Assembly: GCA_963708695.1 (NCBI GenBank) | Contig: CAVPTS010000018.1 | Span: 16,260-48,259 of the forward strand | DNA from: an uncultured beta proteobacterium | GTDB lineage: Bacteria > Pseudomonadota > Gammaproteobacteria > Burkholderiales > Burkholderiaceae | Reading direction: 5' to 3' | DNA length: 32,000 nucleotides | Part shown: piece after piece, positions 269 to 17,472 of the stretch | Position numbering within the stretch: the stretch's first letter is position 1 | Layout: every line of letters starts with the position of its first letter | The notes under the pieces: generated by a model | Told to the model about the DNA's origin: nothing | Seen by the model: only the letters and a program-made list of their open reading frames with translations | Databases searched by the model: none | Position numbers and translations under genes: made by a program

Positions 269-333
269 AACCTCCATCGCAACAGGTCAAGGCAAAATCT
301 TAAAAAAGTGTCGGCGACGGCTCCCGTTTTGCC
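269..333 (+). repeat. Direct repeat copy R1 (candidate att/junction sequence)
   Basis: The 65-nt sequence aacctccatcgcaacaggtcaaggcaaaatcttaaaaaagtgtcggcgacggctcccgttttgcc recurs at 11126-11189. About 58 of 65 positions match, with one A indel. Its core recurs at 17448-17472. Similarity ends at the same right-hand point (...gttttgcc) in R1 and R2. Confidence 0.6.
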
Positions 334-396
334 CTAAGCGACAGATCGGGTTGAACGCCTCCGTCAAAAGAATGGACTTAGCTTGCAGGTCTTTCG

Positions 397-654
397 ATGG
401 TTGCACTTCGAGGCCGCGTCGCCATCCGAAGAAAAGGAAAGACAGCACGCTCGCATTTACGCCTGGCTAACACGTTCATTGCCCTGCTGGCATTGGCGGT
501 AGGCGGATTTTCTGCTTACGTTTCATGGCTGTCAGATCCGCGCAACGCCGAAAATTTAGATGTCGTAGCGGACACCGAGTCGCTATGCACTTTGGAATGG
601 AGGCCGGATATCAAGGGATCGGCGACACTCAACTGCAGGGTCGTTGTCCTATGA
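397..654 (+). CDS. Hypothetical small protein with one predicted TM helix
   Basis: 85-aa ORF with the hydrophobic stretch FIALLALAVGGFSAYVSWL. The RBS is weak and I recognised no family motif. Confidence 0.3.
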   Translation: MVALRGRVAIRRKGKTARSHLRLANTFIALLALAVGGFSAYVSWLSDPRNAENLDVVADTESLCTLEWRPDIKGSATLNCRVVVL

Positions 655-708
655 AGCCTTGCTGCGTTCGTGGGAAACCCCTTCTATCGCAGTAAGGCCC
701 CGCTGATG

Positions 709-1056
709 CTAGCGTCGTCCGATCAGTAACGAGATTGCTTCTTCGAGCAGCGCCACCGAGGCATTGACGTCTCGGGCTTCAACATCCCCGCGACCGGAAA
801 GCGCCAAGTAGGCCATGTGCACGCTTGGCGAATGTTTCGCCAGTGCCACCAGGTGCGTGCCGCTTGGGCCGCGCACCGCGCTAAGCCAGTTTTGCACGGT
901 TCTCTCGCTGGCGCCCGTCCATCGGGCGATCGTTTTGACTGAGTGCTGCGAAGCCTGCATCTCTTCTCTCAGGGCCATGGCAATCGCGAGCGGATATTCC
1001 GCTCCGACTGAAATTGTTTGCTCCTCGCGCAAATTCTTGCTGTTTCTCGGCAACAT
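709..1056 (-). CDS. Helix-turn-helix DNA-binding protein (putative element regulator)
   Basis: ATG at 1056 is preceded by GGAGG. The HTH-like segment is SVKTIARWTGASERTVQNWLS. The gene is divergent from the recombinase, with a 108-bp shared intergenic region. The ORF track starts it at 1071 on a TTG. Confidence 0.6.
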   Translation of the reverse strand: MLPRNSKNLREEQTISVGAEYPLAIAMALREEMQASQHSVKTIARWTGASERTVQNWLSAVRGPSGTHLVALAKHSPSVHMAYLALSGRGDVEARDVNASVALLEEAISLLIGRR

Positions 1057-1164
1057 TTTTCGCGCCTCCAAACGTATATTTTCTGGACGGAAAGATGAAA
1101 CAAAACCAAGGGGAGCGTCGCTCGACCGTGCTGCTGTCGGGTTGCCCTGCCAAACGGAGGTGCC

Positions 1165-2739
1165 GTGAGCCGGCCAACGCGCGAAGAAGTTTCTAGCAAC
1201 TCAAAAACCGGGCGGGCGCGCGCGGCCGCATATGTGCGCATGTCGACGGACCACCAGCAATACTCAACGGAAAACCAAACAGACGTGATCCGGGCGTTCG
1301 CCGAAGCGCGCGACCTGGAAATTGTTCGGATTTACGCGGACGATGGCAAGAGCGGTCTCGTCCTGCAAGGACGCAAGTCGTTGAACGATCTGATTCACGA
1401 CGTCGAGTCCAAGTCGGTTGACTTCGAATTCATACTTGTCTACGACGTGAGTCGCTGGGGTCGGTTTCAGGATACGGACGAGAGCGCAAGCTATGAACTC
1501 CGTTGCAAACAAGCGGGCGCGCGCGTGCTCTACGTCGCAGAGCAGTTCGAAAATGACGGCAGCCCGATATCGAGCGTTATCAAAAGTCTCAAAAGAACCA
1601 TGGCCGCTGAATACAGCCGCGAACTAGGAGAGAAGGTCAAACTAGGCCAGATCCGCTTGGTCAAGAGCGGTGTTCGCCAAGGTGGGCCGGCCGGCTACGG
1701 ATTGCGCCGCGTCGCGATCGACCAAACGGGCAACGTGAAAGCCGAATTGGCACGCGGGGATCATAAATTCCTGCAGACCGAACGTGTGATCCTCAGGCCG
1801 GGGCCGCCAGACGAGGTAGCCACCGTCCAAGAGATTTACAGTGAATTCGTGCACGAGGGCCGCACGGAGTCTGAGATCGCGGTCTGGCTCAACTCCACCG
1901 GTAAGAAGACAGACCGGGGCGTCGACTGGACTCGCGGCACCGTCCATCAGGTCCTAATCAACGAGAAGTATGTGGGTCACAATGTTTGGAATCGGACATC
2001 GTTCAAGTTGAAGCAAGAGCGAATCAAAAATCCGCCCGCCGCGTGGGTGCGAAAGGACCACGCGTTTGAGCCCATCGTGGACACGCTGATGTTCGAAGCA
2101 GCGCGGCAAATCATCCTCGCTCGGTCTTATCGGCTGAGCGACGACGACATGCTCGGCGCATTGCGCACTGTTTTGCGGCAGAACGGCCTGTTGTCAGGCC
2201 TAGTTATTGATGAGGCTCCGGGGTGCCCTTCGAGCAGCGCTTTCCGCAGCCGCTTCGGAAGTCTGCTGCGCAGCTATACGCTGATCGGATATCAGCCGGA
2301 TCGAGATTATCGATTCGTTGAGATCAATCGGCGGCTGCGCGAGATGCATCCGCGCATCGTCGAGCAAGCGGTGAGAGCGATGCTCGGCGCCGGCGCGTCG
2401 GTGGAGAGCGACCCGCGCTCCGGCTTGCTTCGAATCAATGAAGAGTTCAAGGCGTCGCTGGTTCTCTGCCGCTGCCGGGCGACGGAGGCGGGCAGCAACC
2501 GATGGATCGTCCGCTTGGATGCCGCCCTAATGCCGGATATTACGGTTGTGGCGCGCATGGAGCCCGACGCACAGTCTATCCGCGACTATTTCCTGCTTCC
2601 GGCAATCGACGTGTGGGAAACCCGCGTGCGTTTGGAAGACCACAACGATTTTGGCATTGAAGCTTATCGCTTCGACGACTTGGAAATGTTGGTCCATCTA
2701 AGTCGTAGAGTTCCTTTGCGAGGGGTGTCTTATGGATGA
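1165..2739 (+). CDS. Large serine recombinase (resolvase/invertase catalytic domain plus recombinase domain)
   Basis: GTG start lies 5 nt after GGAGG. The N-terminal AAAYVRMSTDHQQYSTENQ is the catalytic-serine motif of serine recombinases. DVSRWGR and LINEKYVGHNVWNRTSF are typical of the recombinase domain. The protein is 524 aa and I saw no obvious Cys-pair zinc ribbon. Confidence 0.92.
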   Translation: MSRPTREEVSSNSKTGRARAAAYVRMSTDHQQYSTENQTDVIRAFAEARDLEIVRIYADDGKSGLVLQGRKSLNDLIHDVESKSVDFEFILVYDVSRWGRFQDTDESASYELRCKQAGARVLYVAEQFENDGSPISSVIKSLKRTMAAEYSRELGEKVKLGQIRLVKSGVRQGGPAGYGLRRVAIDQTGNVKAELARGDHKFLQTERVILRPGPPDEVATVQEIYSEFVHEGRTESEIAVWLNSTGKKTDRGVDWTRGTVHQVLINEKYVGHNVWNRTSFKLKQERIKNPPAAWVRKDHAFEPIVDTLMFEAARQIILARSYRLSDDDMLGALRTVLRQNGLLSGLVIDEAPGCPSSSAFRSRFGSLLRSYTLIGYQPDRDYRFVEINRRLREMHPRIVEQAVRAMLGAGASVESDPRSGLLRINEEFKASLVLCRCRATEAGSNRWIVRLDAALMPDITVVARMEPDAQSIRDYFLLPAIDVWETRVRLEDHNDFGIEAYRFDDLEMLVHLSRRVPLRGVSYG

Positions 2740-3649
2740 CCAAGTGAAAGGGATCGGGGCCACTCTGCCTCGCGAGGACAAGATCACGCTTATCCCTGCC
2801 AGTCAGTTGCGAGTGCTTAACCCCCGGACGCGCAATAGTTTGTTTTTCTCGCAGCTCGTAGAGAACATCGCGACAGTAGGACTCAAACGCCCTATCACCG
2901 TTGCCTTGGGTGGCCAGTCGGAGCAAGGCGACTGGTATGAGGTGCTTTGCGGGCAGGGACGCTTGGAGGCACTCCAAGCCCTTGGAGAGAGCATGATTCC
3001 ATGCTGCGTAGTCGAGGCGGATCGCGTTGAGCGGTATTTGATCAGTCTGACCGAAAACATCGCGCGTCGGCGGCACAGCACTGAAGAGTTGCTGAGCGGA
3101 TTGCAGATCCTTCGGGATCGTGGCTACACGGCAGAGCAAATCGCTCAAAAGACGAATCTCGACTCGCGATACATCACCAGCATTCTGCACCTTCTAGAAA
3201 ATGGCGAGCTTAGGCTTTTGCGTGCGGTGGAGAGGAAGGAAGTCCCATTGTGGCTTGCGATCGATATCGCTCGATCACCGCGGGAGGAAGTGCAGGCGGC
3301 GTTGGTCGCGGCTTACGAGAACGGGACATTGAAAGGCGACCAGTTGATGAAAGTCCGCAAGCTGATCACTCGCCGCGAGGCGTCCGGCAAGTCGTATTAC
3401 CCGAAAAAGAAACCTGCAAACGACACGCCCACGCCCCAGAAGCTGCTAAGGACTTACCAAGCCGAAGTCCGCCGCCAGCAATTCGTCGTTCAAAACGCGA
3501 AGATCCAAGAAAATCGACTGTTGCTCATCACCTCGACCTTCAAACGATTGTTGGCTGACGAGCATTTCCGGACACTTTTACGCGCGGAAAACATCAAGGA
3601 CATCCCTGAAACAATCGCTCGCCGCATTCCGTCGGAGTTGCTGCCATGA
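2732..3649 (+). CDS. ParB N-terminal-domain protein (ParB/Spo0J/sulfiredoxin-like fold) with HTH
   Basis: The start overlaps the recombinase stop (ATGGATGA). GLKRPITVAL...YEVLCGQGRLEALQALG resembles the ParB N-domain GxxRxxA region. The HTH-like segment is TAEQIAQKTNLDSRYITSILHLLE. Confidence 0.85.
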   Translation: MDDQVKGIGATLPREDKITLIPASQLRVLNPRTRNSLFFSQLVENIATVGLKRPITVALGGQSEQGDWYEVLCGQGRLEALQALGESMIPCCVVEADRVERYLISLTENIARRRHSTEELLSGLQILRDRGYTAEQIAQKTNLDSRYITSILHLLENGELRLLRAVERKEVPLWLAIDIARSPREEVQAALVAAYENGTLKGDQLMKVRKLITRREASGKSYYPKKKPANDTPTPQKLLRTYQAEVRRQQFVVQNAKIQENRLLLITSTFKRLLADEHFRTLLRAENIKDIPETIARRIPSELLP

Positions 3650-4545
3650 CCGAAATAAAGCACGGGTTCGAATCGCAAATCGTCGACGTTTCGCTCGCGC
3701 TGATTCGCCCGAGCTCGCCGACCCCCGCGCGTGTTTTGGCGACGCCCAAATTCCAAACCATTCTTGCGTCGATTCGCGAGTTGGGGATCATTGAGCCATT
3801 GGCCGTTTATCGATCGAGCGAGCATGCAGGTGAATACGATCTGCTTGACGGACACCTGCGCCTCGAAGCGTTGAAACAGCTCAATCGAGAAGTTGCGCCG
3901 TGCATGATTTCGCTGGATGACGAGGGATTCACTTTCAACCGCCACATCAACCGCAGCACCGCAGTCCACGAAAATCGAATGATTCGGGCGACTCTTGCGA
4001 AGGGCGCGTCTGCGGAGCGGATCGCGCAGGTGCTCAAAATCGACGTGAAGCGCGTTCGCGAAAAGGCCCATCTGCTCGACAGAATTGCGCCCGAGGTCGT
4101 TTCAATGCTCAAAGACAGGCAGGTAATCCCAAGGGTGTTCAAGGTGCTCAAAAAAATGAAACCCATGCGGCAGATCGAGGCGGCGGAGATGATGGTCGCC
4201 GCTAACCGCTTCACGGCGAGCTATGCGGAAATGATTTTCGTCACCTCGCGGCCTGAAGCGCTCATCGAGACCTCGCGCGCCAAGAAGACCGAAGAGATTT
4301 CCGCGGACGACATCGCGCGAATGGAAGCCGAGATGGAGCGGCTGCATCAAGACAGCCAAGCGGTGGAGGACAGCATCGGGGACACAATGCTTTCGTTGGT
4401 TGTCGCAAAAGGATTCACGAATCGGTTGCTGCGCAATGAGAACATCCACGAGCATCTAAGACGTCATCATCCGGATTTGCTCGCGAGCCTAGTCGGTGCC
4501 ATGGAAGCGATCGCCGCGGACAATCGCACGCCTGAGCGCGAATGA
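3646..4545 (+). CDS. ParB/RepB-like protein (second ParB N-domain paralogue with a RepB-type C-terminal region)
   Basis: ATGA overlap with the upstream gene. LGIIEPLAVYR...YDLLDGHLRLEALKQL is ParB N-domain-like. SAERIAQVLKIDVKRVREKAHLLDRIAPEV is HTH-like. The C-terminus is helical and acidic. Confidence 0.85.
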   Translation: MTEIKHGFESQIVDVSLALIRPSSPTPARVLATPKFQTILASIRELGIIEPLAVYRSSEHAGEYDLLDGHLRLEALKQLNREVAPCMISLDDEGFTFNRHINRSTAVHENRMIRATLAKGASAERIAQVLKIDVKRVREKAHLLDRIAPEVVSMLKDRQVIPRVFKVLKKMKPMRQIEAAEMMVAANRFTASYAEMIFVTSRPEALIETSRAKKTEEISADDIARMEAEMERLHQDSQAVEDSIGDTMLSLVVAKGFTNRLLRNENIHEHLRRHHPDLLASLVGAMEAIAADNRTPERE

Positions 4546-4878
4546 TGCAATTCATCATTTACGCAACTGATACCCTTGAGCAGTCGATACTCCGAAGTGT
4601 CCTCTGTTGCGGGATTATTCTGTAACGTCAGATCAAGTTGAATTGGTCCTGTTCGATAACTCTCACATCTTTGCTTGGCGCGAGAGCCCCGAGTCAGATC
4701 GTTAGTTGGCGCCTTTGTCCGAAAAAGTCTGGGACTTTCCGGATGGGCCAGTGCCGCGGTTTGCCATTGAATTAGATTCGGCAGCGCTGCATTTCATTTT
4801 TGAGTCTATGCATGCGTGCCAAGCGCGGCTACGATCCATTGTTCTTTTGCGATGACGGCCCTCTCAGCTAATCGCGCG

Positions 4879-4902
4879 CCCGTCGTGAGACGGGTTTTTT
4901 TT
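4879..4902 (+). terminator. Rho-independent terminator
   Basis: Stem cccgtc / gacggg with loop gtga, followed by eight T. It lies about 330 nt downstream of the ParB2 stop. Confidence 0.7.
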
Positions 4903-5472
4903 AATTAACGCAGGTTCGTTATGTCAGGACCCGATTAGTTACGCGGTGGGAAAGGACTACCGGCATGCCGACGATTTGCTATTCCGAAGCGCGTGCGCGA
5001 AATACTAAGGCGATAACTACGAAGCGACCAAATGACGTCCGCACCCCGCGCGTTTGCAAACGGCAGCCGTCGTCGATCCCCCGTAAATGCATTTTGTTCT
5101 ATTGTGATCGCGGGAAGCACGCCCGTTCAGCGCGATGTTGTCTTGGTTACCTCCGGTGCCGGTTGTGTCGAAAGGACGATCGCGCGGCGCGGCTGCGATA
5201 CAACCGCTATTGAAAGAGATCGAGACTTCGTGCGCGGCCACTGCGCGGGCGCTTCCTCCGCGCGATAGCCCGATGGTCCTTTGATGCCAGCACCCGTTAT
5301 TCAGGCCCTCCAGAACGTCAGCGCTATTTCGCCAGCTTCGTCACTAGTGATGAACTGCGTGCGCTTAACGTCAAGCTCTTGCCGTGTTAGCGACTCCGGC
5401 AGGCAACCACGTCGCACAGAGAAAGCATCACAACCCGGCGCCCATTTCCGGCGCAAGAATCAGAACCAAATC

Positions 5473-5689
5473 GCCCCAACTTATGCGCGCAAGCCCGCGT
5501 CTGCCCCAACATATGCGCTATTCATTCGAACGGCATGCTCCATCAGTCGAATTTCAAAGGGTAATCATGGCCGGTCCCGCTGCAACACGGCTAGGGCGAA
5601 CGGATCAACCCTGTGAAACCGCCGTTATTGACGCATACGGTGGACCGGACTACGCATAAGTTGGGGCGGCTTCACGCATAAGGTGGGGC
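5473..5689. promoter_or_regulatory. Array of a 16-nt motif GCCCCAAYWTATGCGY (two direct copies facing two inverted copies)
   Basis: The motif is GCCCCAACTTATGCGC at 5473-5488 and GCCCCAACATATGCGC at 5503-5518. Reverse-complement copies are ACGCATAAGTTGGGGC at 5652-5667 and ACGCATAAGGTGGGGC at 5674-5689. A partial copy lies at 5630-5643. The region has no convincing ORF. Confidence 0.5.
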
Positions 5690-6547
5690 AGATTCCACCT
5701 GACCGGTCGCTCCCCTTCTGTCTGTTCGATGGGCTGCGATGCTCTCCTCTCGGCTTCCATGGCACGCTCGATGGCCCAGTGATGCTCTCGAAGAAGGAAG
5801 CGCCGCGCGATCACGACACCAAGTTCAGCCGTGACATTCGGCGCGGCAACGCATTCGTGCGCTCACCTCATCCGTGATGGCTGCTCGAGTATTTGGCGCA
5901 AGCGGCTAACGAAGTGCTACGCCCGGCGCTTGGCAGAAAAGCTCACAACCAAAAAGTCATGGGCTTGCCCGATTCGTGGCGCGGAGATCGAGGTATATCT
6001 GCCCATGTTCGGGCCGAACGATCAGGACTGATGGGTCAAGGAGATCTTCTCCCACGTCAACGGCACGAACATCGTGCGACCGCGTGTGAACCGGGGGATC
6101 GCTGCGTGAGGGTGCTTCGAGGCGAAGTGATCTGCCTGATAGATAACGCGCTGCTCACCTACTGCGTCTATTTGCGGGCGGAAGCAACAAGACAAGCGGC
6201 GATCATGCTTCGATCGGCTCTTATTGCTAAGTGCAGCATGGCGGTTTGGCGGTGGAGCGGTCTGATTGTTGCGATAATGCGATAGACACTCGCGGTGAGA
6301 CAGACGGAGGCAGCGTCAGCGAAAAGGATCGCCGCGCTGGAGGCGCTGATACGCCGAGCTAAGCCCGACGTGGATGAAAGCAGCACGTGAAGTTGAAGCA
6401 GGCGATTTCCAGGTCGCCTGCAAATCAAAACTGCAGCTAATAACTACGAAAAGCACAAAATCTGGTATCTAATCGCGTCAGAGGCACAACATGTGCTATC
6501 CTCAGTTCAAAGGAAGCCTCAACTTCCTGCGGACAGGGAGTCCCCAC

Positions 6548-7303: not shown

Positions 7304-7942
7304 GTGCAGGCACTCAAAGACGTCGGAGAGATCACCGCTCTCCTAAGTAACACCCCGCTGTCTAAATCCCCTCTTTGGGACAAGCCGCTAGACGAACTCG
7401 ACCCGGCGCAACTTCATGCTTTCCTTACGCGACTGACCCTCGACGGACACGGCGAAGAAGCGCGGCGGATCGCGGAAGTGGTCATGGCGCAGATACGCGC
7501 TGTGCAGACACCGGCGGCGGTCGTGTCAATGCCGATTCTCGCGTTCGCTATACCGCAAGAGCGCATGACGCTTGGCGAGCTCAGACTCGGTTTAGAGAAG
7601 CTCACGCGGCCCCGGCCGGCGGCAGTCCTGTTCGGGCTTGAAACCGACATGGAGATCGATGCGCTGATTACCCTCAAATGGGATAAGGCGAACGAACTGC
7701 GCATGAGCGGCACGCTCTCGAAGATGGCAACCGATGTGCTGCGACTTGCGCCGCGGCACTTGAGCAGCCCTTACGTGTTCTGGCAGAACTTCAGCGACGG
7801 CGTGGCGCCGCTGTTCGGGTTGTCCCTGGAGCTCGCTGAAATCTTCGATATGGGTCGTTTAGGCCTAAATCCGAGCGCCGCGGGTCGGCCATATCCCAGC
7901 GTTTTGACCTTCTGCCACTCGTGTGTGCGACCGCTCGGATAA
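7304..7942 (+). CDS. Hypothetical protein, family X, copy A (N-terminus intact, native C-terminus lost)
   Basis: Residues from about DMEIDALITLKW to AEIFDM are closely paralogous to 15759-16067. After position 7853 the reading frame runs antisense through the 3' end of the ligase gene instead of the MEWPELRQAY...WLTN tail seen in copy B. Confidence 0.5.
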   Translation: MQALKDVGEITALLSNTPLSKSPLWDKPLDELDPAQLHAFLTRLTLDGHGEEARRIAEVVMAQIRAVQTPAAVVSMPILAFAIPQERMTLGELRLGLEKLTRPRPAAVLFGLETDMEIDALITLKWDKANELRMSGTLSKMATDVLRLAPRHLSSPYVFWQNFSDGVAPLFGLSLELAEIFDMGRLGLNPSAAGRPYPSVLTFCHSCVRPLG

Positions 7943-8597
7943 GGCGAGTTTAGTCGCTTGGCCACCATCCCCTCGAAGCCATGATGCTCAACCTGTTCAA
8001 AGACCCACTCGCCGGCGCCGACAATCCCGTTCATGAAAACAAGGGTGCCAGTGTCATCGAAGCTGTCTCGCAGGAACGCTTTACGTTTGATCAGCGTCAT
8101 GCCGCGCAGGTCTCGATCCCCAATCGTCAACATATCGAACATGTAGAGTCGCGCGGGCTTGGCGATCGCTGCTGCTTTAATCCGAGACGCCACCGAGGTC
8201 GTCGAACGTGAAAGCAGCTTTTCAAAGTTCGAATGGCCGCCCGGGTCATCGACCGTAAGCTCGGCGTCCACGTGAAGTCGCCCGGGACTTGAGCGACCGC
8301 GGCAACGATCTCGGGAAACGATCGGTTCAGAGAATTGCCAGGACGCGAGATGAGCTCCACGCTGTCGCCCTGCTTCCTGATCAAGCACCGGAACCCGTCG
8401 TATTTCCATTCGAAGATCCAGCCCTCGAGGGAGAACGGCGCGCGCTTGAGTGTGGACAGCATGAGGTCGGCCGCCTCAATCGGCTTCACAAGCGGCACAC
8501 CGGGAGGCCTGGCCCGGACAGCGATTTTCTTCGCTGTTGTCGGCGCTTGCAGAGCACGAGCCATTCGATCCCCGATCAGTCTATCGGCCGACATCAC
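7771..8597 (-). pseudogene. ATP-dependent DNA ligase interrupted by one frameshift
   Basis: Frame 1 (8597 to about 8274) contains motif I, EWKYDGFRCL. Frame 2 continues with VDAELTVDDPGGHSNFEKLL, FEGMVAKRLNSPY (motif IV-like) and EWQKVK (motif V-like). The frames switch at about 8268-8274. The native stop is missing relative to copy B. Confidence 0.8.
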
Positions 8598-8625
8598 TTC
8601 GCGACGTGAGCTTGAAGCGCATGCG

Positions 8626-9084
8626 CTACCGCCACTTGGAAAAATTCATGTATCGACCGAAGAGAATATCAATACGATTTTCCTTAAGCCACGTATTTGC
8701 TGCCTGAATTGCAAACCCGCGTCTCGGCCCGTCGGTCGAAGCGTTAACCGCATAGTAAGCGACTACATCCATAAACCCGGCAACTTCGCTCCCAAAAAGG
8801 AAGCGCGCTTCGACAGTCTTTTCTTTAAAGTCGCCTAGCGGACCAGAAAGCGCCTTTTCTCCTTGGCTTATTAGAGCGAGCATGTCAGTGGTTGCCTTAT
8901 AGACCTTGTAACGTTTGTCGAACAGGTCGAGATTAAGCTTTCCTCGCGCAATTTTATATTGCCTATAAGCAATCACGACCGCGACGAACGCCACTACGAC
9001 GGTGCACGCACCATTGATCGCAGTGAGCACCAATGGATTGATACTCGCCGCTAAAAGTTCGAGTCCAGCCAAGCCTTCCCCCAT
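8626..9084 (-). CDS. Hypothetical membrane-anchored protein (N-terminal TM)
   Basis: 152-aa ORF and last gene of the - strand operon. The hydrophobic N-terminus is LVLTAINGACTVVVAFVAVVIAY. It overlaps the upstream gene by 34 nt. Confidence 0.55.
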   Translation of the reverse strand: MGEGLAGLELLAASINPLVLTAINGACTVVVAFVAVVIAYRQYKIARGKLNLDLFDKRYKVYKATTDMLALISQGEKALSGPLGDFKEKTVEARFLFGSEVAGFMDVVAYYAVNASTDGPRRGFAIQAANTWLKENRIDILFGRYMNFSKWR

Positions 9085-9275
9085 TCCAGTCCACGCGCAT
9101 GAGCTGCCGCTTCAGTGTCGAAGCATCCGATATCACTGAAGTTGAAAATCTGCCCGTGATCTTCGTCCTCCCACGGACCACGCTCGACCTCGATCCAGGC
9201 ATGCCACAAGTGGTTCTTCCGTTCGGGCACCGACTCGATGTTCCATTCCCCGTGTTCGATTTTCATTGGTGACAC
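9051..9275 (-). CDS. Hypothetical small protein
   Basis: 74-aa ORF packed in the same-strand operon. I recognised no motif. Confidence 0.5.
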   Translation of the reverse strand: MSPMKIEHGEWNIESVPERKNHLWHAWIEVERGPWEDEDHGQIFNFSDIGCFDTEAAAHARGLEWGKAWLDSNF

Positions 9276-9348
9276 TCCACCGGTTGCTCACCCCTTCAGC
9301 AGCATCGAGCAACATCAATAGATGCCTCTGTGGCAGACCGTTAGTTGC

Positions 9349-9543
9349 TCAAATGATCTCACCCGACAGGGGATCGGGAACAAGATTCGCGCCGTTGAAG
9401 TAGCCGTTATGCAGCACGTTTCCATCGAACCACTGACAGTCGTAACAGTTGTTGTCGCGCACCGTGTGGATGACCATACGCGGGCCGCGAGTCTTGAGGC
9501 GAACCTCGTCGCCAATTTTGTATTGAGAAGGCTGCTTAACCAT
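9349..9543 (-). CDS. DUF2158 (YodC-like) small protein
   Basis: YKIGDEVRLKTRGPRMVIHTV...CQWFDG matches the GDxVxLKSGGPxMTV...C.WF pattern of DUF2158. I chose the internal ATG at 9543, but the ORF is open to 9651. Confidence 0.7.
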   Translation of the reverse strand: MVKQPSQYKIGDEVRLKTRGPRMVIHTVRDNNCYDCQWFDGNVLHNGYFNGANLVPDPLSGEII

Positions 9544-9622
9544 AATGTGCTCAAGAAAATTAAAGGGAAATGCAGTTTGGCGCCCGTCAAAGCTGATGCA
9601 AGAAGGGTCGCTGGCGAGCGAC

Positions 9623-9889
9623 CTATGACTGCTGTCGGCCCGGTTGATCATAGGGTTGCCGAAGCCTCCAAATCCGAGCGCCCCGCTCCCAAACGATAGT
9701 GTCAGCCGTCAGCGAATTGAACGCCTTAAGGACCGACCGGTGAATCGCCATATTTCCGTTATCGTTGATGTAGGTCCACTCCCGCCCGAATTGTTCCATG
9801 ATCATGCTCACCGCAACCTCTTGGTCTAGCACGTGCCCGGAAACAACCCTCGCGGTCATGAATTCGGCGATTTCCGCAGCAGTTGTCAT
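9623..9889 (-). CDS. Hypothetical small protein
   Basis: 88-aa ORF whose ATG overlaps the stop of the upstream DUF2158 gene (ATGA at 9886-9889). Confidence 0.6.
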   Translation of the reverse strand: MTTAAEIAEFMTARVVSGHVLDQEVAVSMIMEQFGREWTYINDNGNMAIHRSVLKAFNSLTADTIVWERGARIWRLRQPYDQPGRQQS

Positions 9890-10083
9890 TTCGTCGTGGC
9901 CTCTTCGTCGTGGACCAAAGTCTGTTTGCTAAAGTTCGCCCGCTCGGCCTTCGCTCCTGCGAACCACCGGCACGCGACGGTGTTGGTGTCTTCATATAGT
10001 TCACTGACCGTCATCTTCGGGCCGCCCGACTTAAGTTTCACAATGTCACCAACCGCAAATTTCCCGTCTATTTTTCCTGCCAT
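9886..10083 (-). CDS. DUF2158 (YodC-like) small protein
   Basis: FAVGDIVKLKSGGPKMTVSELYEDTNTVACRWFAG is the canonical DUF2158 pattern. Confidence 0.8.
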   Translation of the reverse strand: MAGKIDGKFAVGDIVKLKSGGPKMTVSELYEDTNTVACRWFAGAKAERANFSKQTLVHDEEATTK

Positions 10084-10233
10084 GGTCTCCGCCTAGGGTA
10101 TGTGTCGCTTGGCGCTGGCGAATTGCCGCTCCTATTTGTCGACACGGGTGAGAATACTCGAATATTGGGGCACGCAACATTGGTAGCTAACAGCCGCAGC
10201 CGAAACAGACAGTTAGTTGCTTTTGTTCTTCTA

Positions 10234-10692
10234 TCAGACTGTGATATTTTTCCCAATCTTTCTGATGCTCACGCCGTCATCGGGATCAGTCGGCGGCGTA
10301 GCCTTGGAAGAGTTCGCCTTGTCTTTGGCGGCCCAGCAGTCAACCGTTTCAGCTTGAGCTTCATACATGGCTTGCATCGTTTCACGACGTCGCTTGGCTC
10401 GAGCACCAAGTGCGCTGAAAAACATAACGCCCGCTGCTAATGTAGCGGCTATGTCAACAATCGCAAGGCCAATCTCCTTTCGAGACGGAACACCAGAGCC
10501 TTCAACAAATTGGTTAAAGCTGTATAGCGTTAAAACGATCAGTAAGAGCGGCATTCCTAGCTCGAGCACCAATGACAAACTCACCCCGAGCCAAGACCGC
10601 AAAGTCTTTCGCCCGTCAGGGTTCATGTTTGCCAGCGCGATGAGTATCGTGATCGCGCCGACGATACCGGTTACTACCGGAGCCCACTGCAT
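10234..10692 (-). CDS. Hypothetical integral membrane protein (about 3 TM plus a charged tail)
   Basis: ATG at 10692 is preceded by GGAGG, while the ORF track extends to 10833 through the motif array. Hydrophobic segments are VVTGIVGAITILIALA, LSLVLELGMPLLLIVLTLY and IVDIAATLAAGVMFFSAL. Confidence 0.6.
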   Translation of the reverse strand: MQWAPVVTGIVGAITILIALANMNPDGRKTLRSWLGVSLSLVLELGMPLLLIVLTLYSFNQFVEGSGVPSRKEIGLAIVDIAATLAAGVMFFSALGARAKRRRETMQAMYEAQAETVDCWAAKDKANSSKATPPTDPDDGVSIRKIGKNITV

Positions 10693-10755
10693 AAAGCCTC
10701 CGCTTTTGCGAAGTTCGAATGGTCGGAGAATACCTGTTCCGAAAGGCTTTGCAAC

Positions 10756-10972
10756 ATAGGTCGCACAGACGCGACCTATTGGATCTCGAAGCACCCTACT
10801 TTTGCGACCTATCCTGCCGTCAATAGGTCGCACGGGTGCGGACTATTCGGGGGAAAACCATCTGCCGAGAGGGTGCGACCGGTCGATCTGTGGACAACTG
10901 CCTACGGTTAAAAGCGATAGGTCGCACCGCAGCGATCAGTTGGCTACGATTCCTCGCTCCGTTGCGACCTAT
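10756..10972. promoter_or_regulatory. Array of the 10-nt motif TGCGACCTAT / ATAGGTCGCA in alternating orientation
   Basis: Exact copies lie at 10756-10765 (rc), 10803-10812, 10823-10832 (rc), 10917-10926 (rc) and 10963-10972. A 9/10 copy lies at 10770-10779. Degenerate copies are near 10836-10848, 10874-10882 and 10987-10996. The array sits between the membrane-protein gene start and R2. Confidence 0.55.
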
Positions 10973-11125
10973 TTCTTCCGGCATCGTAGGTGCGATCTTT
11001 AGCAACCGGGCTTTTAACTCGGATGGCAGCCGAACGTTTCGGGGAACGCTCGCGTTAACCATTGGAGATCGGGCCTGCCAAGCGGTCCTTCATTTGCGCG
11101 ACTGGGACGTGTTCGGCACCGGGCA

Positions 11126-11189
11126 AACCTCCGTCGCAACCGGCCGAGGAAAATTCTTAAAAAGTGTCGGCGACGGCTCCCGTTTTGCC
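11126..11189 (+). repeat. Direct repeat copy R2
   Basis: The sequence aacctccgtcgcaaccggccgaggaaaattcttaaaaagtgtcggcgacggctcccgttttgcc aligns with R1 over its full length. Confidence 0.6.
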
Positions 11190-11465: not shown

Positions 11466-11648
11466 ATGGACGAAGTTGAATACTTTGGGCTCGCCGAGTT
11501 CGTCGTCGAGCTAGATGCGGCCAACTACGCGGAGCCGTCAGTAGACGCAATTCATATGCTTGGCAAGGAAATGATCGCCAACGGCATCACGGATGTCGCA
11601 AAGAAGTTGCGCGCTCTCAAAGCGGCGTTTGCTATCAAACCTGACTAG
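11466..11648 (+). CDS. Hypothetical small acidic protein
   Basis: 60-aa ORF with a purine-rich RBS (aaaaaggaaacacaATG). Confidence 0.5.
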   Translation: MDEVEYFGLAEFVVELDAANYAEPSVDAIHMLGKEMIANGITDVAKKLRALKAAFAIKPD

Positions 11649-11965
11649 CAGGGACCCAGTCGTTCGTCATGAGCGAAAGCCACAGCGCGGACGCTTCCTC
11701 TGCGTCATCTTCCCGGACGACCTTGTTTCCGACTCCACGTCGTCAGTTCACCGATAAATCCGCGTGGCGTCGCAGAAGTGCTTTGCCTTGAAGATTTATC
11801 CCTCTGGATTCGCTGACGCGTCGCCTTCGCGTCATCCTTCGGCGTAACTCTTCGACCACGGGTCGAATTACCACAAGCGACGGAGCACCGTCGACGATTG
11901 ATTGCATCCCCACCCCCACTTTCCCGCTGTATCCTGTCCCTCATCCCCTTCCGAGGAGCGCTCAC

Positions 11966-12367
11966 ATGGACGCTGCCACGACTGCCACGTTGATTGCGAT
12001 CTTGGGTGTGCTCTCGCTGCTTTTCGGGCACCATCTAAGGAATTTGGCACTGATTTTTTGGGATGTTCTCTTTCCTCGTCGGTATGGTGGTGGTTCAAGC
12101 AGTCCTCTCTCTCCACCCGACAAAATCTCGTCCCATAGCGAGGACTCGCTCTCTCCCGAGGATCGTGAACGTTTAGTAAGAGCTTCAAATCTGACGCGAA
12201 GGGAGGCTGCCGAGCGCCGCAGGTTTTGGATGCAGGCGTTCGTTACAGTGATTGTGCTGGTGGCGGCTATATACGTCTTGGTGTTCAAGCCTGACGCGGA
12301 AACTTCGCTCAAAGACTTTTGCTATACATCGGTCGGAGCGATCATCGGCTTTTGGTTGAAGGGTTAG
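11966..12367 (+). CDS. Small membrane protein, paralogue 1
   Basis: GAGGAG RBS. It has an N-terminal TM, and its C-terminal FWMQAFVTVIVLVAAIYVLV...GAIIGFWLKG parallels the next gene. Confidence 0.55.
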   Translation: MDAATTATLIAILGVLSLLFGHHLRNLALIFWDVLFPRRYGGGSSSPLSPPDKISSHSEDSLSPEDRERLVRASNLTRREAAERRRFWMQAFVTVIVLVAAIYVLVFKPDAETSLKDFCYTSVGAIIGFWLKG

Positions 12368-12462
12368 TCCTTCCTTCTCTGGCACTCCCCGCTGTATCCT
12401 TTCCCGCAACCCTTCGTCTCCGTTGTCCGACCTATCCTCCTAACTAACTATAGGGGTGTGTC

Positions 12463-12771
12463 ATGGAAGAGCTGCTCGGTCCCTACGCGGTTGCGGTCAT
12501 CTTGATGGCGCTCGGAGTGCTGGCTCTCCTTCTGGTCAGCCGATTTCGTTATATAAAAATAGGCGGAGGTGGAGGCGTGCTTGCTCCACAGGCTGCAGCG
12601 GCAAGGATAGATATTCCAGCGTGGTTTAGGCTGGCCATGCAAGCCCTGATCTCTCTCGTCGTGCTGGCTGTAGCTCTCTATGTAATCGTGAAGGCCGCCG
12701 ACGAAGGTAGTAAGAAGTGGGGTATTGGGGCCGCTGGAACCATCGTTGGTTTCTGGTTACGCGGGGTTTAG
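12463..12771 (+). CDS. Small membrane protein, paralogue 2
   Basis: N-terminal TM. FRLAMQALISLVVLAVALYVIV...GTIVGFWLRGV is paralogous to 11966-12367. Confidence 0.6.
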   Translation: MEELLGPYAVAVILMALGVLALLLVSRFRYIKIGGGGGVLAPQAAAARIDIPAWFRLAMQALISLVVLAVALYVIVKAADEGSKKWGIGAAGTIVGFWLRGV

Positions 12772-12773
12772 CC

Positions 12774-13028
12774 CTACCAGATCCCGAACTCTGTGCGCGG
12801 TAGGGTTACTGGCGCCTCGTAGATCCACTCCTTTCTGAAGCCGTCGAAATCCGCGGCCATCATCCAGTCCTCGGTGGAGTTCTCGCCGTGCAGGCCGAAC
12901 TTGTTTCTCAATACGGTGGCGAGCACGATCACGTCCTCATTGGTTTCTGTGTCGTAGCCGGTGTAATAGCGCTCGCCTAGCTCGAGGTAGCCTGAGTCGT
13001 GCAGCCGGATGGTTGTCATGTCTCTCAT
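12774..13028 (-). CDS. Hypothetical small protein
   Basis: 84-aa ORF with GGGAG upstream and no recognised motif. Confidence 0.45.
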   Translation of the reverse strand: MRDMTTIRLHDSGYLELGERYYTGYDTETNEDVIVLATVLRNKFGLHGENSTEDWMMAADFDGFRKEWIYEAPVTLPRTEFGIW

Positions 13029-13047
13029 GGCCTGTCCGCTCCCGTAT

Positions 13048-13236
13048 TTACTCCAGGTAGAACAGTGAGACTAGACAGACCGCCGAGTCGCTTGCATCGC
13101 GATTGACCGGTGCCATAACCCGATCGAAAATTGTTGCGCCAGCAACGTCGCAGACTGCCACCAGCACCAAGATAAGCCAGACAAACCGCACGATACCCTC
13201 TTCTTTCCAATGTTCCGTGAAGCGATTATGGCTCAC
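13048..13236 (-). CDS. Hypothetical small membrane protein
   Basis: 62-aa ORF with the hydrophobic core IVRFVWLILVLVAVCDVAG. Confidence 0.3.
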   Translation of the reverse strand: MSHNRFTEHWKEEGIVRFVWLILVLVAVCDVAGATIFDRVMAPVNRDASDSAVCLVSLFYLE

Positions 13237-13838
13237 CAGACATCTCCGTAGCCTGGGTGGCCGTCTGCCCGAAGCTGACCGGGATCGGATCGTCGAATGA
13301 GTCCTCGGGACTGTTGCGGTAGGGCAGCGTGTATAGCTTTCCCTCGTATGCCTTGTAGTCTCCGCCGTGTCCGACCATCAGTGCGAGTGCCGGCGGGGAG
13401 ACATCGAGCGACACGCGAGTCTCCAGGACCAGTAGCGGGAAGGTCCGGTTCTGTGGGTCGAATCGCCTCCTCGAACGTCGTCTCAGGGTCGAGCCACTCC
13501 TTGGCTTCCTCGGCCGTCAGCACCAGCGGCCGGCGGTCGTGGACGTCGAGCATGCCGGCGTTCGAGGCGTCCGTGACGATCACGAAGCCGTCACCATCGT
13601 GGCGCTCACCACCAGGCGGGATGGTTAAGAGGCTGACGAGGAACAGCGGCTTCCCATCGCCGGGCTAAATGAAGGAATATTCCGCCTACACGATGATCGT
13701 TAGCAGACAGCCGCAGTGTTTCACCTGAGCCGCGCTCTAGTCTGGGCAGAAGTTTACGGTCCTCGAAGTTCAAGGAAGCGGAATGCGAATCGCAGTTACG
13801 ACTGCCGCACAATACGAGACAGGACCTGAGCTGAGCAA
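13226..13838 (-). pseudogene. SOS-response-associated peptidase (SRAP/YedK family) remnant
   Basis: FVIVTDASNAGMLDVHDRRPLVLTAEEAKEWLD matches the SRAP C-terminal pattern (..T..AN....IHDRMP..L.....WL). The upstream frame reads LCGSRN... and ...ARRWEAAVP, reminiscent of the N-terminal MCGR and RWGLxP. The frames are broken and the central part is shortened. Confidence 0.55.
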
Positions 13839-13979
13839 CCACAGCTACTGGACGCTCGCATCGCGGGCAATGCGGTCGCCGAGTGCGGGGAATGGATAAA
13901 AGAAACCCATGGTTGCCGGGCGTTTTTCGATCAACCGCCTTGATCTCGAGCGGACCTGGTTTAATAAAGCCCCTGTGAT

Positions 13980-14438
13980 TCAGCCGTGTGTGTCGTTCGA
14001 GAGTTCACGTAGCAGTGTAGGTCCGCTTCGGGCCATCATCCAGTTCATCGCGAAGCGGAGGAAAAATTCATATCGAATGCCGAGCTGATCTCCCGTTTGC
14101 CGCAGCATCCAGAGCGCCTTCTTCTCTTTCGCTTGCATGAAGTCTTCGCTGCCCTTGAAGGGGCGCATGAACTTGCCGCGCTGGTAGTCGAGCGTCGTCA
14201 CCATGAAGTCCTGATACGCCTTCAGATAGCACTGCGCGAACAGATACGTCGCCTTTGTCGGGTGCATGCGCCGGTAGTCGAACCACTTGGTCGTGAGCAA
14301 CTCGGGCTCGCGCTTGAGGATCTTGCCGTCGATGTTTGCGATTGCCGCGACCTCACAGTGCAGAAACGACAGGTCATGCCCGTAAAAATCCCCAAACCAT
14401 TTTTGGAGCTTGGGTTCCGCGATGATCAGTTGGGTCAT
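13980..14438 (-). CDS. Hypothetical protein
   Basis: Intact 152-aa ORF with a GGAAAGG RBS. I did not recognise a family. Confidence 0.55.
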   Translation of the reverse strand: MTQLIIAEPKLQKWFGDFYGHDLSFLHCEVAAIANIDGKILKREPELLTTKWFDYRRMHPTKATYLFAQCYLKAYQDFMVTTLDYQRGKFMRPFKGSEDFMQAKEKKALWMLRQTGDQLGIRYEFFLRFAMNWMMARSGPTLLRELSNDTHG

Positions 14439-14620
14439 CCTTTCCGCCTCGTCAAATAACTAATACTTATATTTAAGGCTTAATACTTCTTAAAACTAAC
14501 GGGAACGCTGTGGGAGCCCAAGTCGCGGACCCGGGAACCCAAGTAGCGCATACAAATGTGGCATAGCGTTCCTCCAATCCGTCGCCTATGGTTTAGCTAC
14601 CAAAAAGGGAGACCCAAATC

Positions 14621-15094
14621 ATGAGCACACGTCTAGGAATCTTCCTTGCTCTTCTTGCCTGCTTTACCCTGAGCGTCGACGCTTTCGCCGCCGACATAGG
14701 TTGCGAGCAGCCGGCTTACGACGCTTCAGTAAAAGGCAATGGCTGCAACCCTTATGCTGGAACCGACCCAGGCGGCTCTGGAAAAGGCGGTGGCGGTGGC
14801 TCCATTTCCACTGCCGAGGGAATAGCTGAACAGAGATGCACTATGGCACAGCGTGCAGGGGTAGCTGGATGCAAATCGAAAGGTGGCACGACGGCGCAGA
14901 TCACATCCTGCGAGAGCAACGTAGATACCACCGAGGAACAATGCATTAAACATGTTAAGGCCACTTACGACCCCGCCCCCGCCACTGGCGAAGCGAGCGA
15001 CAACTCCATCACAGGAAATTCCAAAAACGCCAAGGCGAAGTCTTCCGGCGTTCACGTTGGGATACCGGCGTCTGCACTTAAGCACACCCAGTGA
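14621..15094 (+). CDS. Secreted Cys- and Gly-rich hypothetical protein
   Basis: GGGAG RBS. The signal-peptide-like N-terminus is MSTRLGIFLALLACFTLSVDAFA/AD. The protein has several Cys residues and a GGSGKGGGGGS tract. Confidence 0.6.
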   Translation: MSTRLGIFLALLACFTLSVDAFAADIGCEQPAYDASVKGNGCNPYAGTDPGGSGKGGGGGSISTAEGIAEQRCTMAQRAGVAGCKSKGGTTAQITSCESNVDTTEEQCIKHVKATYDPAPATGEASDNSITGNSKNAKAKSSGVHVGIPASALKHTQ

Positions 15095-15137
15095 CCGTTC
15101 ATAGCTGCGAGAGTTGCCTCTCGCAGCCGGTGTTTCC

Positions 15138-15605
15138 CTACGCGGCTTCCCGTTCGTATGACTCCAAAATCTCCTGGATCACGCCGTGCCGCACGACATC
15201 CTTCTTTTCGAACCGCACGTGGCCGATGGACGGAATCCACGTCACACGCTCGATGGCGTCGGTGAGACCGGACTTGCCGCGGGACATCGACCTGCCCCGT
15301 TTCCCCGTTGATGATCAGGCGCGAGCCCTCCCCGATGCTGGTCAGGAACATCTTCATCTGCTCGGGCGCGGTATTTTGCGCTTCGTCTAAAATTACGATC
15401 GCATTTTTAAACGTCCTCCCGCCCATGTAGGCTAGCGGTGCGCCCTTGATGTTGCCCATGCGCTTGTGATACTCGTAAGCGCCGGTGCCCAGGCGCTCGA
15501 CCATGACTTCTTCGAACGGCACTAGGTAGTGGCTGAACTTCTCTTCCATCCCGCCAGGCCATAGTCGATCCGCCCGTTACCGGCACAATGGACTTGTGCA
15601 TCTTT
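15138..15605 (-). pseudogene. PhoH-family ATPase remnant (5'-truncated and frameshifted)
   Basis: APLAYMGGRTFKNAIVILDEAQNTAPEQMKMFLTSIGEGSRLIINGETGQVD matches the conserved PhoH core. The C-terminal GKSGLTDAIERV...FEKKDVVRHGVIQEILESYE lies in a different frame. No Walker A region is present upstream. Confidence 0.75.
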
Positions 15606-15627
15606 TTGCATCTTCATGACGCCTCAA

Positions 15628-16067
15628 TGACTGACCGGCTGGTTGCGCGCCCGGAGGAACTTCGAGAGACCCTAATCGAGGGGTCCGGCAAGCGGACCGC
15701 GGCTTTGAAGAAGCTTCGCGAGTCGGTCGAGAAGCACCCACCCTGATCCGTCGCGAACTTGCTCCGCTTTAAAACCGACATGGACGTCGACGAGCTGATC
15801 ACCCTCAAATGGGCTAAGGCGAACGAACTGCGCATGACCAGCACGCTCTCGAAGATGGCGACCGATGTGCTGCGACTCGCGCCACGCCACCTGCGCACCC
15901 CGTATGTGTTCTGGCAGGAGCTCAACGATAGGATCGCGCCGCTTTTCGGTCTGTCTCTGGAGCTCGCTGAGATCTTCGATATGGAGTGGCCAGAACTGCG
16001 CCAAGCCTATCGGACGATCATCAAATTGGATCCAGAAATTGAGCGCCTGACCTGGCTCACAAACTGA
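15628..16067 (+). pseudogene. Family X, copy B (5'-truncated, in-frame stop, native C-terminus intact)
   Basis: 15759-16067 is closely paralogous to 7645-7853. The upstream segment MTDRLVARPEELRETL...LRESVEKHPP ends in TGA where copy A reads through. Confidence 0.6.
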
Positions 16068-16372
16068 TCAGACCCAATCTGAGTCAGATCGAATCCCTTG
16101 CGTCGTCGTTGCCGCAGACGTTGTTCACGAAAGCCTGGAGAGCATGCCGTTCAGCGGGCGACATAAACGAGCGCACGCGCGCACGAATGTCATCCAGTCT
16201 TTTGCCATGAAGGGTTCGTTGAGCAGGTTTCACCTGACAAACAGGCTGAATTGCCACTCGATACCCAAGGTCTGACTCGTCGTATCGGGGACTGTTTGCC
16301 GACGGCGTTTCGAGAACGCCGCAAGGGTCTCAATGGGCGAATTCATCGCGTATTTTATATGGAACGATCGTG

Positions 16373-16741
16373 CTATTCACTCTCGTTAATCCACTTGCGG
16401 TAGCGACGAAAAGCGCGAACAACGAAAATAATCACAAGAACAAACCATGTCACCAAGCCTTGGCAAATAGCATATAGTAATCCAAAGTAATAAATCTTCT
16501 GGAAAGAAGGCGGCAAATGCGGGTTGACTAGTATGCCGTGGGGGACTAAAAGGTCTCCACTGCGGATGGTCGAAACCAGCATGTAACCAAAGCCCAAGCA
16601 ACTAACAACACAAATAACTAGCATTTCAATGCTTCGAGCAACCGCTCTTGGAGAAAGCTCGACGGGTCGCGTCAGCGCCAATACAACGGCAACAATACTG
16701 GCGAGCGCACTGACTATTCCGATCCATTGGTCGAGCGTCAT
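16373..16741 (-). CDS. Hypothetical integral membrane protein (about 4 TM)
   Basis: 122-aa ORF with four hydrophobic segments. It lies between family X copy B and the ligase remnant, and this gene is absent at the equivalent point in segment 1. Confidence 0.6.
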   Translation of the reverse strand: MTLDQWIGIVSALASIVAVVLALTRPVELSPRAVARSIEMLVICVVSCLGFGYMLVSTIRSGDLLVPHGILVNPHLPPSFQKIYYFGLLYAICQGLVTWFVLVIIFVVRAFRRYRKWINESE

Positions 16742-16781
16742 TTCACGATCCCCGCGATTCCATTTCCTTCAATATCGATGA

Positions 16782-17168
16782 CTATCTTGGGCCGAAACCA
16801 AGTGCCGCAGTTCGACCATAACCGGCGTATTTGATCTTCTGCCATTCATGGGTGCGACCACGCTGGTAAAGCGAATCGAGTCGCTTCGCCACCATGCCTT
16901 CAAAGCCGTGAAGCTCGACTTGCTCAAATACCCATTCGCCTTCGCCGCCGATGCCGTTCGTGAAGACGAGCGACCCTGTGTCCTCAAAGTTGTCGGGAAG
17001 AAAGCCATTCCGCTGACGTAACGGCAGACCGCGCAGATCGCGAAACCCAATCGTCAGCATATCGAACATGTAGAGCCGCGCCAACAGCGCTCCTTGGACG
17101 CATGGAGGAAGGCCTGTTGAGCACTCTTTCGCCCACCTGGAATCGATGAGTCGCGCGGACAGTCTGCC
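16782..17168 (-). pseudogene. ATP-dependent DNA ligase fragment (C-terminal part only)
   Basis: ARLYMFDMLTIGFRDLRGLPL...FEGMVAKRLDSLYQRGRTHEWQKIK is paralogous to 7771-8180. No motif I (KxDG) region is present upstream. Confidence 0.7.
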
Positions 17169-17447
17169 TTACAGGAACCGGGAGCGATAGTAGACGACCG
17201 CAGGTCAACCTCAACGGGCAAATGACAAGGTGGCAAACGGAAACGACGTTCGACGCACGTCTCTATCAGAAGAGGTGGTCCCGCTCGGCGTCGCTCTATG
17301 CGAAAGCGTCATTCACGGTCAGGAACGAGGAAGGGGATGCCACCTGCGCCGCTGAAATCTCCTAGGAGTCCGCCTTTGCAGCTGACCGGAGGCAAAACGC
17401 TAGGTCGCGCGCCGCACCAAGTTCCTCAGCGTCGAAATTTCGAGCAC

Positions 17448-17472
17448 GTGTCGGCGACAGCTCCCGTTCTGC
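17448..17472 (+). repeat. Direct repeat copy R3 (degenerate core)
   Basis: gtgtcggcgacagctcccgttctgc matches the R1/R2 core at 23 of 25 positions. A TAGGTCGC 8-mer, the core of the 10-nt array motif, lies at 17401-17408. Confidence 0.45.

Follow-up and report, generated by a model that had tools for sequence, protein, structure and literature searches.

In the 32,000-nucleotide (nt) stretch analyzed here, which we call the window (contig CAVPTS010000018.1 of assembly GCA_963708695.1, positions 16,260 to 48,259, from an uncultured beta proteobacterium of the Burkholderiaceae), three copies of one short sequence, R1, R2 and R3, lie in the same orientation and divide 17 kb into two related segments. 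A first-pass annotation had taken them for attachment (att) junctions left by integrative elements that had accumulated in tandem at a single target. Our analysis points to a different origin: R is probably a copy of an asymmetric, cis-acting protein-binding site that is specific to a family of phage-plasmid-like viruses, and was inherited together with decayed viral remnants. The motif consists of AAA.T, about 8 nt of spacer and GTGTCGG-N5-GCTCCCGTT; in many copies it is preceded, at a distance of about 42 nt, by a GGCCTAGG-type box. Its owners are viruses of about 110 kb whose hosts have a G+C content of about 60%, with four to six intergenic copies per complete genome that always lie on the strand opposite to the almost uniformly leftward viral genes. 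A virus-encoded regulator would bind the motif, similar to the dispersed operators of phage P1 or the stoperators of phage L5. An island of at least 46 kb would have been assembled from decayed and rearranged pieces of such a viral genome, each of three tandem blocks retaining one motif copy at its right end, and the similarity between the copies would stop sharply on the right because the functional motif ends there. A nearby serine-recombinase module would be an unrelated passenger that was inserted 0.4 kb from R1.

Coordinates refer to the window, with negative numbers to its left, and C18 denotes the host contig. Realignment supported the original description of the repeats: R1 and R2 match at 58 of 65 columns with one 1-nt gap, they end in an identical 26-nt core (GTGTCGGCGACGGCTCCCGTTTTGCC), and R3 keeps 23 of 25 core positions. 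Directly after the core the bases diverge at once, CTAAGC following R1 and GTGCAG following R2. The similarity of the three repeats is far above chance. When the whole assembly (6.4 Mb) was scanned with up to three mismatches, R1, R2 and R3 were the sole copies, all on the plus strand of C18, and the reversed-pattern control gave no match; exact matches of the degenerate motif GTGTCGG-N5-GCTCCCGTT fall on the same three positions only. A dispersed host repeat of the repetitive extragenic palindrome (REP) or miniature inverted-repeat transposable element (MITE) type, an explanation that the first-pass annotation had itself raised, is ruled out by this count of three copies and one degenerate neighbor in 6.4 Mb. 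The neighbor (GTTTCGGGGAACGCTCGCGTT, 11036-11056) lies 128 nt upstream of R2 inside block B1. Genome-wide, matches with two mismatches are at background (nine compared to six in the control), but with its position so near R2 and on the same strand a chance origin of this copy is unlikely, and together with R2 it resembles the paired motif copies of the viral records described below. Every copy in the window sits between minus-strand open reading frames (ORFs), as is the case in the viral records.

Neither the 16 kb left of the window nor the remainder of the contig's first 60 kb yielded further copies above background. An R-like candidate in inverted orientation (5055-5113) was dropped, its score being no better than background, and an 18-nt exact match on contig C4 was taken as chance since it falls inside the coding sequence of a UvrA-like ABC ATPase. 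A structured RNA or a tRNA-derived target can also be ruled out: the window contains no tRNA or tmRNA gene, the repeat matches no Rfam family, both strands of R fold unremarkably (z-scores of -1.0 to +1.2), and no consensus RNA structure is shared by 20 copies from different sources.

The motif was matched in viral records of the IMG/VR database, five of which were searched with up to two mismatches. Six forward and no reverse copies occur both in G433 (111 kb, estimated complete) and in G434 (113 kb, complete with direct terminal repeats), four and none in G435 (110 kb), and three and none in the partial record G437 (41.0 kb, 38% complete), while the partial record G436 (73.9 kb, 69% complete) has none and four. 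The copies, three to six per record, are thus one-stranded within each of the five records, and the reversed-pattern controls were 0 throughout. Since copies on one strand exist inside the viral records, direct copies need no integration event. Most viral copies form two pairs about 1-1.5 kb apart, followed by one copy about 8-10 kb further on and one extra copy in G434; in G433, the copies at 37619 and 37654 are only 35 nt apart. G433 and G434 are collinear with 70-85% identity across the copies, which occupy matching positions. Of the six copies in G434, four clearly fall between ORFs and two overlap with ORFs that are weak; the strand opposite to the motif carries 118 of the 139 crude ORFs (85%). 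The consensus of 23 aligned copies adds AAA.T about 10 nt upstream and the GGCCTAGG-type box, which is conserved about 42 nt upstream of the motif in the viral records, and in five independent flanking contexts the similarity breaks off at the same right-hand edge. Neither a serine nor a tyrosine recombinase is encoded by G433 and G434. Among all five records no serine recombinase was detected, and the only tyrosine integrase, that of G435, is 42-53 kb away from the motif copies of this record.

The cargo of the island is of viral ancestry. In a translated comparison, the two fragments of a protein family termed X (X1 and X2), the two remnants of a small ATP-dependent DNA ligase (lig1 and lig2), a gene at 9051-9266, a gene for 152 amino acids (aa) and a PhoH fragment all map to positions 79.4-92.5 kb of G434. 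X1 is 60% identical at the aa level to G434 81826-82374, lig1 matches 79966-80592 as two pieces (tblastx), and the gene at 9051-9266 has its homologue at 79476-79691. Two leftward genes of G434 flank a motif copy (92959) that is located about 95 nt upstream of PhoH. Family-X homologues, which are rare, are found in contigs of 110-115 kb, G433 and G434 among them, that also encode PhoH, Hfq, DnaB, primase, two ATP-dependent ligases (one large, one small), an initiator of the Rep3 or TrfA type and ParA. The viral family to which the five motif-bearing records belong encodes X, the small ligase and PhoH. A phage database contained no family-X member in named phages, and distant homologues (27% identity) are present on Acinetobacter plasmids of about 105-108 kb. 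Best hits suggest that the hosts of the viral family are close to Paraburkholderia, and the G+C content of G434 (60.8%) stands beside that of the host genome (60.2%).

Within the island, three tandem and mutually related blocks are each closed by R on the right, the third of them lying left of the window. This leftmost block has the order A0 (-4967..-4500), B0 (-4501..-4422), an intact 538-aa gene C0 (-3217..-1601), a conserved stretch Y and R1, which bears out the earlier suggestion that a third unit may end in the DNA preceding R1. In segment 1, block A1 is followed by 5.2 kb of extra DNA, B1 and R2, and in segment 2, C1 is followed by other genes, a Y stretch and R3. Extension to the left, which the first-pass annotation had recommended in search of another R copy with related cargo, revealed the related blocks, but no further R that bounds the left block was found. 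Paralogues of X and of the ligase are present in both segments as had been stated, although both sets consist of fragments; their DNA identity is 74-84%. Compared with G434, X is inverted relative to the ligase in both segments, which thus have a derived rearrangement in common and are related to each other, not independent captures. The island as a whole is a patchwork of related blocks of 60-350 nt in both orientations. Duplication, unequal recombination and successive insertions are possible ways in which the three blocks became tandem.

The large serine recombinase starts 832 nt past R1, consistent with the 0.8 kb noted before, and belongs to a module of four genes together with a divergent helix-turn-helix (HTH) gene and two ParB_N/RepB-type genes. 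The same four-gene block occurs in three other species of the genus (G244, G403 and G419) with about 70% identity to the block of the window and about 91% identity to one another; the flanks are unrelated and the homology ends at the outer gene ends. A Paraburkholderia plasmid (NZ_CP134199.1, 30 kb) holds the block among toxin-antitoxin, abortive infection (Abi) and restriction genes; with the plasmid counted in, the identity to the window is 68-70%. Neither R-like sites nor flanking repeats were found around the block in the three species (up to 20 kb per side, less at contig ends), and no R-like sequence occurs anywhere in the plasmid. Because the block is found in unrelated flanks without R in four replicons, the recombinase module is self-contained and independent of R. 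We found nothing specific in the literature on a module of recombinase and ParB genes.

Two contigs of metagenome Ga0256909 are relatives of the island by descent. In contig 1000364 (L064/L075), the second ParB-like gene has a homologue, and the 26-mer follows 0.66 kb beyond it without a mismatch. On contig 1000208 (L065), a copy with 24 of 26 positions lies 3.7 kb beyond homologues of the HTH gene and the recombinase, with a GmrSD-type gene between. These contigs also carry further degenerate, co-oriented copies of R, a homologue of the 538-aa gene and other blocks of the island; the joining of the two contigs is only presumed. The DNA between R copies differs greatly between the window and these relatives, whereas the viral records are collinear.

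Several observations weigh against the assignment of R as a viral protein-binding site. No homologue of a regulator was found in the island. R1 and R2 have 39 nt in common beyond the family motif and are thus also true paralogues. The viral records are metagenomic and their gene strands derive from crude ORF calls, and operator and promoter functions are inseparable by sequence alone. Furthermore, R is situated within 0.4-3.8 kb of the recombinase module in the window as well as in L064/L075 and L065, a possible link between the two; these loci are homologous by descent and not independent.

A variant of the assignment as a control motif, in which R would not be a repressor site but would form a promoter core, or an element close to a promoter, that is read leftwards by a viral sigma factor or polymerase, appears unlikely to us. 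The copies do lie upstream of leftward genes, G433 encodes a sigma-70 region-2 protein of about 220 aa (at 82.8 kb), and read leftwards by eye, TTGAC/TTTGA-like and then CCTAGG/TTTAGG-like boxes 17-18 nt apart can be recognized at a fairly constant distance in several copies. However, there is no sigma-70 consensus at the sites, and a scan for sigma-70 promoters returned nothing at the motif. The spacing between an AAC-type -35 element and CGAC, again read manually, is about 12 nt and too short for extracytoplasmic function (ECF) promoters, the best-conserved 21 nt would fall upstream of -35, and a distance of 35 nt as between the two close copies of G433 is unusual for promoters. Manual inspection also led us to reject a sigma-54 promoter, as GG-N10-GC fits R1 and R2 only and not R3, L065 or the viruses, and an ECF/EcfG promoter, for which the spacing is wrong or the -35 element unconserved.

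It is still less probable that R mainly provides homologous recombination with a short conserved 'linker' for the swapping or duplication of modules between related viral genomes, a role that would be compatible with a regulatory one. Such exchange would yield tandem blocks and sharp mosaic boundaries, and would be consistent with the loss of similarity at the motif edge in the five independent contexts, with the very different DNA between copies in the window and the metagenome relatives, and with the patchwork of small related blocks. On the other hand, with 21-26 nt in common the copies are short for an efficient exchange by RecA, no preference of breakpoints for R over other conserved stretches is apparent, and the collinear genomes of G433 and G434 display no swapping of modules at R.

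The tandem-integration model itself, with R1, R2 and R3 as attL, hybrid att and attR from site-specific integration at one att site by the recombinase next to R1, must be regarded as very unlikely. Its descriptive part stands, since tandem related blocks are each closed by R; the integration mechanism does not. Three co-oriented copies that close three related blocks, the near identity of the repeats at every junction, the sharp right-hand edge and the proximity of the recombinase (0.8 kb in the window; 0.66 and 3.7 kb between R and the same module in the metagenome contigs) would all agree with it. Known tandem arrays of integrative elements that share one att site look similar in that related, partly decayed blocks follow one another with co-oriented repeats between them. 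Unlike in such arrays, R is a multi-copy internal motif, strand-specific and at conserved positions in viruses without recombinases, rather than a duplicated target; no attB was found and no cognate integrase co-occurs with R. The left block has no bounding R, blocks B and C lie on either side of R2 in an order that matches the left block, and an extra R-like copy is present 128 nt from R2.

The properties of the enzyme class also argue against the model. Att sites of large serine recombinases are 40-50 base pairs (bp) long with imperfect dyad symmetry around a 2-bp crossover, and to our knowledge attL and attR of these enzymes are not long direct repeats. The situation resembles att sites of the phiC31, Bxb1 or TnpX type in that a large serine recombinase gene lies near one copy, R1. 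It differs from them in that R lacks dyad symmetry (at best 9, 11 and 8 of 20 arm positions match in R1, R2 and R3, compared to averages of 9.5-9.8 in shuffles) and in that the recombinase module occurs elsewhere without R. The recommended search for an unoccupied single-copy site in related genomes gave no credible match in 400 genomes of the family, and an exact scan for a 20-base core in about 185,000 species representatives yielded only two chance-like matches in unrelated Actinobacteria. Between the left end of the contig, 16.3 kb before the window starts, and about position 29916, no DNA is shared with the genus except for the recombinase module, IS110 pieces and scattered gene fragments. 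Because synteny with the genus begins only at about 29916, with a polysaccharide-synthesis gene, no empty site can be defined and the 17 kb belong to a non-core island that spans at least 46 kb and has its left border cut off by the end of the contig. Overall, the evidence leaves neither a need for site-specific integration at R nor signs of it.

The same counterpoints make it most improbable that R copies are recombination sites of the module of HTH gene, recombinase and two ParB-type genes, at which intervening DNA is deleted, inverted or captured in a serine-recombinase-driven cassette platform for defense cargo: the module is indeed flanked by co-oriented R copies in the window and, provided that the two contigs abut, also in the metagenome relative, its orientation is opposite in the two and a GmrSD-type gene lies between module and R in L065, but the contig join is presumed and the loci are homologous to the window by descent and not independent. 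A comparison of L065 4399-4981 with window positions 334-708 and 4546-5237 showed no similarity and hence no empty site of a cassette. If this reading were true, the island would be integron-like, run by a serine recombinase and using a motif borrowed from a phage-plasmid backbone.

The control motif that we favor can be compared with two known classes of dispersed repressor sites. Stoperators are 13-14 bp long, number about 20-30 per genome and are found between genes, in short regions where they keep one orientation with respect to transcription. The one-strand, intergenic pattern of the motif is similar, whereas its length of 21 bp, its bipartite structure with a variable 5-nt center and its four to six copies are different. 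In cluster A mycobacteriophages (L5), stoperators are asymmetric repressor sites spread across the genome (PMC9283540). The C1 repressor of P1 has 22 operators with an asymmetric consensus of 17 bp (PMC8546580). Like these operators, the motif is an asymmetric, conserved site of about 17-21 bp that is dispersed in many copies over a phage-plasmid genome of about 100 kb. Unlike them, it has only four to six copies per genome, mostly in two pairs about 1 kb apart, and there is no sequence similarity. The strict one-strand orientation is shown here for the motif alone.

The sequences upstream of the repeats only partly match the first-pass annotation, which had reported a TAGGTCGC-type motif before each of them. 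The array before R2 exists and comprises six exact copies of ATAGGTCGC within 217 bp, with one further exact copy at 9618; the genome-wide count of this 9-mer is at expectation. The 8-mer before R3 belongs to the counterpart of the viral GGCCTAGG-type box. Before R1, the proposed 'ctaggactcgca' turns out to be a homologue of 'tcctaggagtc', which is located before R3 at 17360, and the two belong to the conserved Y stretch of about 110 nt. Translated in frames of both strands, Y shows similarly weak similarity and thus no clear coding strand. Table 1 lists the coordinates of the features.

Table 1. Features of the window and of the contig to its left (C18 positions where indicated)
Feature	Position	Strand	Remarks
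PLD-type nuclease-like gene	C18:1201-2601		left flank
Split IS110 transposase	C18:6031-7015		left flank
Intact 538-aa gene	C18:13042-14658		left flank
Pentapeptide-repeat gene	C18:15056-15853		left flank
Y stretch	128..237		about 110 nt conserved; upstream of R1; also before R3 and before R in metagenome contig L065
R1	269..333	+	core 308-333 plus 39-nt left extension common to R2; minus-strand ORFs on either side
HTH gene	709-1071	-	Pfam/NCBIfam; first gene of the four-gene module (709..4545)
Large serine recombinase	1165-2739	+	Resolvase and Recombinase domains (Pfam/NCBIfam)
ParB_N/RepB-type gene 1	2732-3649	+	Pfam/NCBIfam
ParB_N/RepB-type gene 2	3646-4545	+	Pfam/NCBIfam
Block A1	5287..5746		paralogous to A0; 5238-5398 also related to L065 4982-5169
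X1	7304..7853	+	family X truncated at residue 183 and fused to ligase remnant; homologues cover 86% of the ORF
lig1	7859..8600	-	small ATP-dependent DNA ligase split over two frames; Pfam PF01068
Leftward cluster of small genes	8626..10833	-	transcribed away from the R2 region
Six-copy ATAGGTCGC array	10756..10972	alternating	between leftward gene cluster and R2
Block B1	10974..11056	+	paralogous to B0; holds the degenerate R-like motif
R2	11126..11189	+	core 11164-11189
Block C1	11785..11911	-	remnant of the 3' end of the 538-aa gene; 85% DNA identity to the intact gene at -3217..-1601
152-aa gene	13980..14438	-	77% aa identity to G434 91507-91905; PhoH-adjacent in the virus
PhoH fragment	15052..15549	-	profile positions 72-167 only (Pfam); G434 92099-92530
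X2	15759..16067	+	family-X C-terminal fragment; residues 109-183 of X1
lig2	16782..17084	-	C-terminal half of small ligase; residues 86-184 of lig1
Y stretch before R3	17257..17373		similar to Y upstream of R1
gCTAGGTCGcg box	17399..17409	+	39-49 nt upstream of R3; counterpart of the viral GGCCTAGG-type box
R3	17434..17473	+	core 17448-17472

Some further observations concern the island and the host genome. The left flank (C18:1-16300) carries the four genes at the top of Table 1, and L065 encodes GmrSD-type, HSDR_N-type and PLD-SNF2 helicase genes, so that the island family looks rich in defense genes. L065 (3695-3961 and 58-618) has a second HTH-like gene copy, which ends about 0.4 kb before R, in addition to the one adjacent to the recombinase. 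Window positions 15278-15450, within the PhoH fragment, match nearly every genome of the genus with about 73% identity, which is explained by a relationship to the phoH gene of the host itself; the stretch is a fragment of the viral paralogue and not of a core gene. The best inverted repeat of the window pairs 5187-5245 with 17480-17535 (about 47 of 59 positions, interrupted by small gaps), the arms being located 8 nt past R3 and between the recombinase module and block A1, and is another sign of patchwork between related blocks. Two direct copies of about 245 nt (22398-22642 and 22991-23241; 82-89% identity, spaced by about 595 nt) contain a AATTTTTGAACATTTGAAC-type 19-mer three times and lie upstream of a minus-strand ParB-HTH gene (21642-22295). 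Comparison of the flank of a relative (G401:C2, about 308.3-309.3 kb) with the host genome brought up a dispersed repeat of about 300-340 nt, located outside the window, with well over 100 copies on both strands at 75-87% identity (for example C5:164798-165133, C4:394957-395296 and C18:222879-223181), which looks like a MITE/REP-type family.

With regard to the viruses, two motif pairs in G433 (37.6-38.7 kb) and G434 (24.9-26.4 kb) bracket two small leftward genes without a family match (37763-38454 in G433); neither Pfam nor an informative PHROG match was obtained for the small genes between the pairs. The region is dense in CCTAGG-type boxes, has a G/T-rich run (ggtttgggttggtttggtttt) behind it and is a candidate control or origin region of the viral family. 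In Paraburkholderia sp. GCA_047605525.1 (JASGFN010000003.1 294145-314771), a 10.6-kb PhoH-to-X replication module of the family lies among ordinary chromosomal genes without the motif and includes small Acb2/Tad1-like and Sequestin-like genes; it is another chromosomal remnant of these viruses.

The presented findings remove the tempting reading that a serine recombinase with an unusual 65-nt att site caused a tandem accretion of elements. As a general point, short repeats that lie in the same orientation at the borders of related segments are insufficient evidence for att sites. The analysis also brings to light a previously undescribed family of phage-plasmid-like viruses of about 110 kb with Hfq, PhoH, two ligases, Rep3 or TrfA, ParA and a 21-bp motif that is restricted to one strand. 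If the motif is of the operator or stoperator type, it would give access to the circuit that controls immunity or regulation in this viral family and would serve as a sequence tag for spotting decayed remnants of such elements in bacterial chromosomes.

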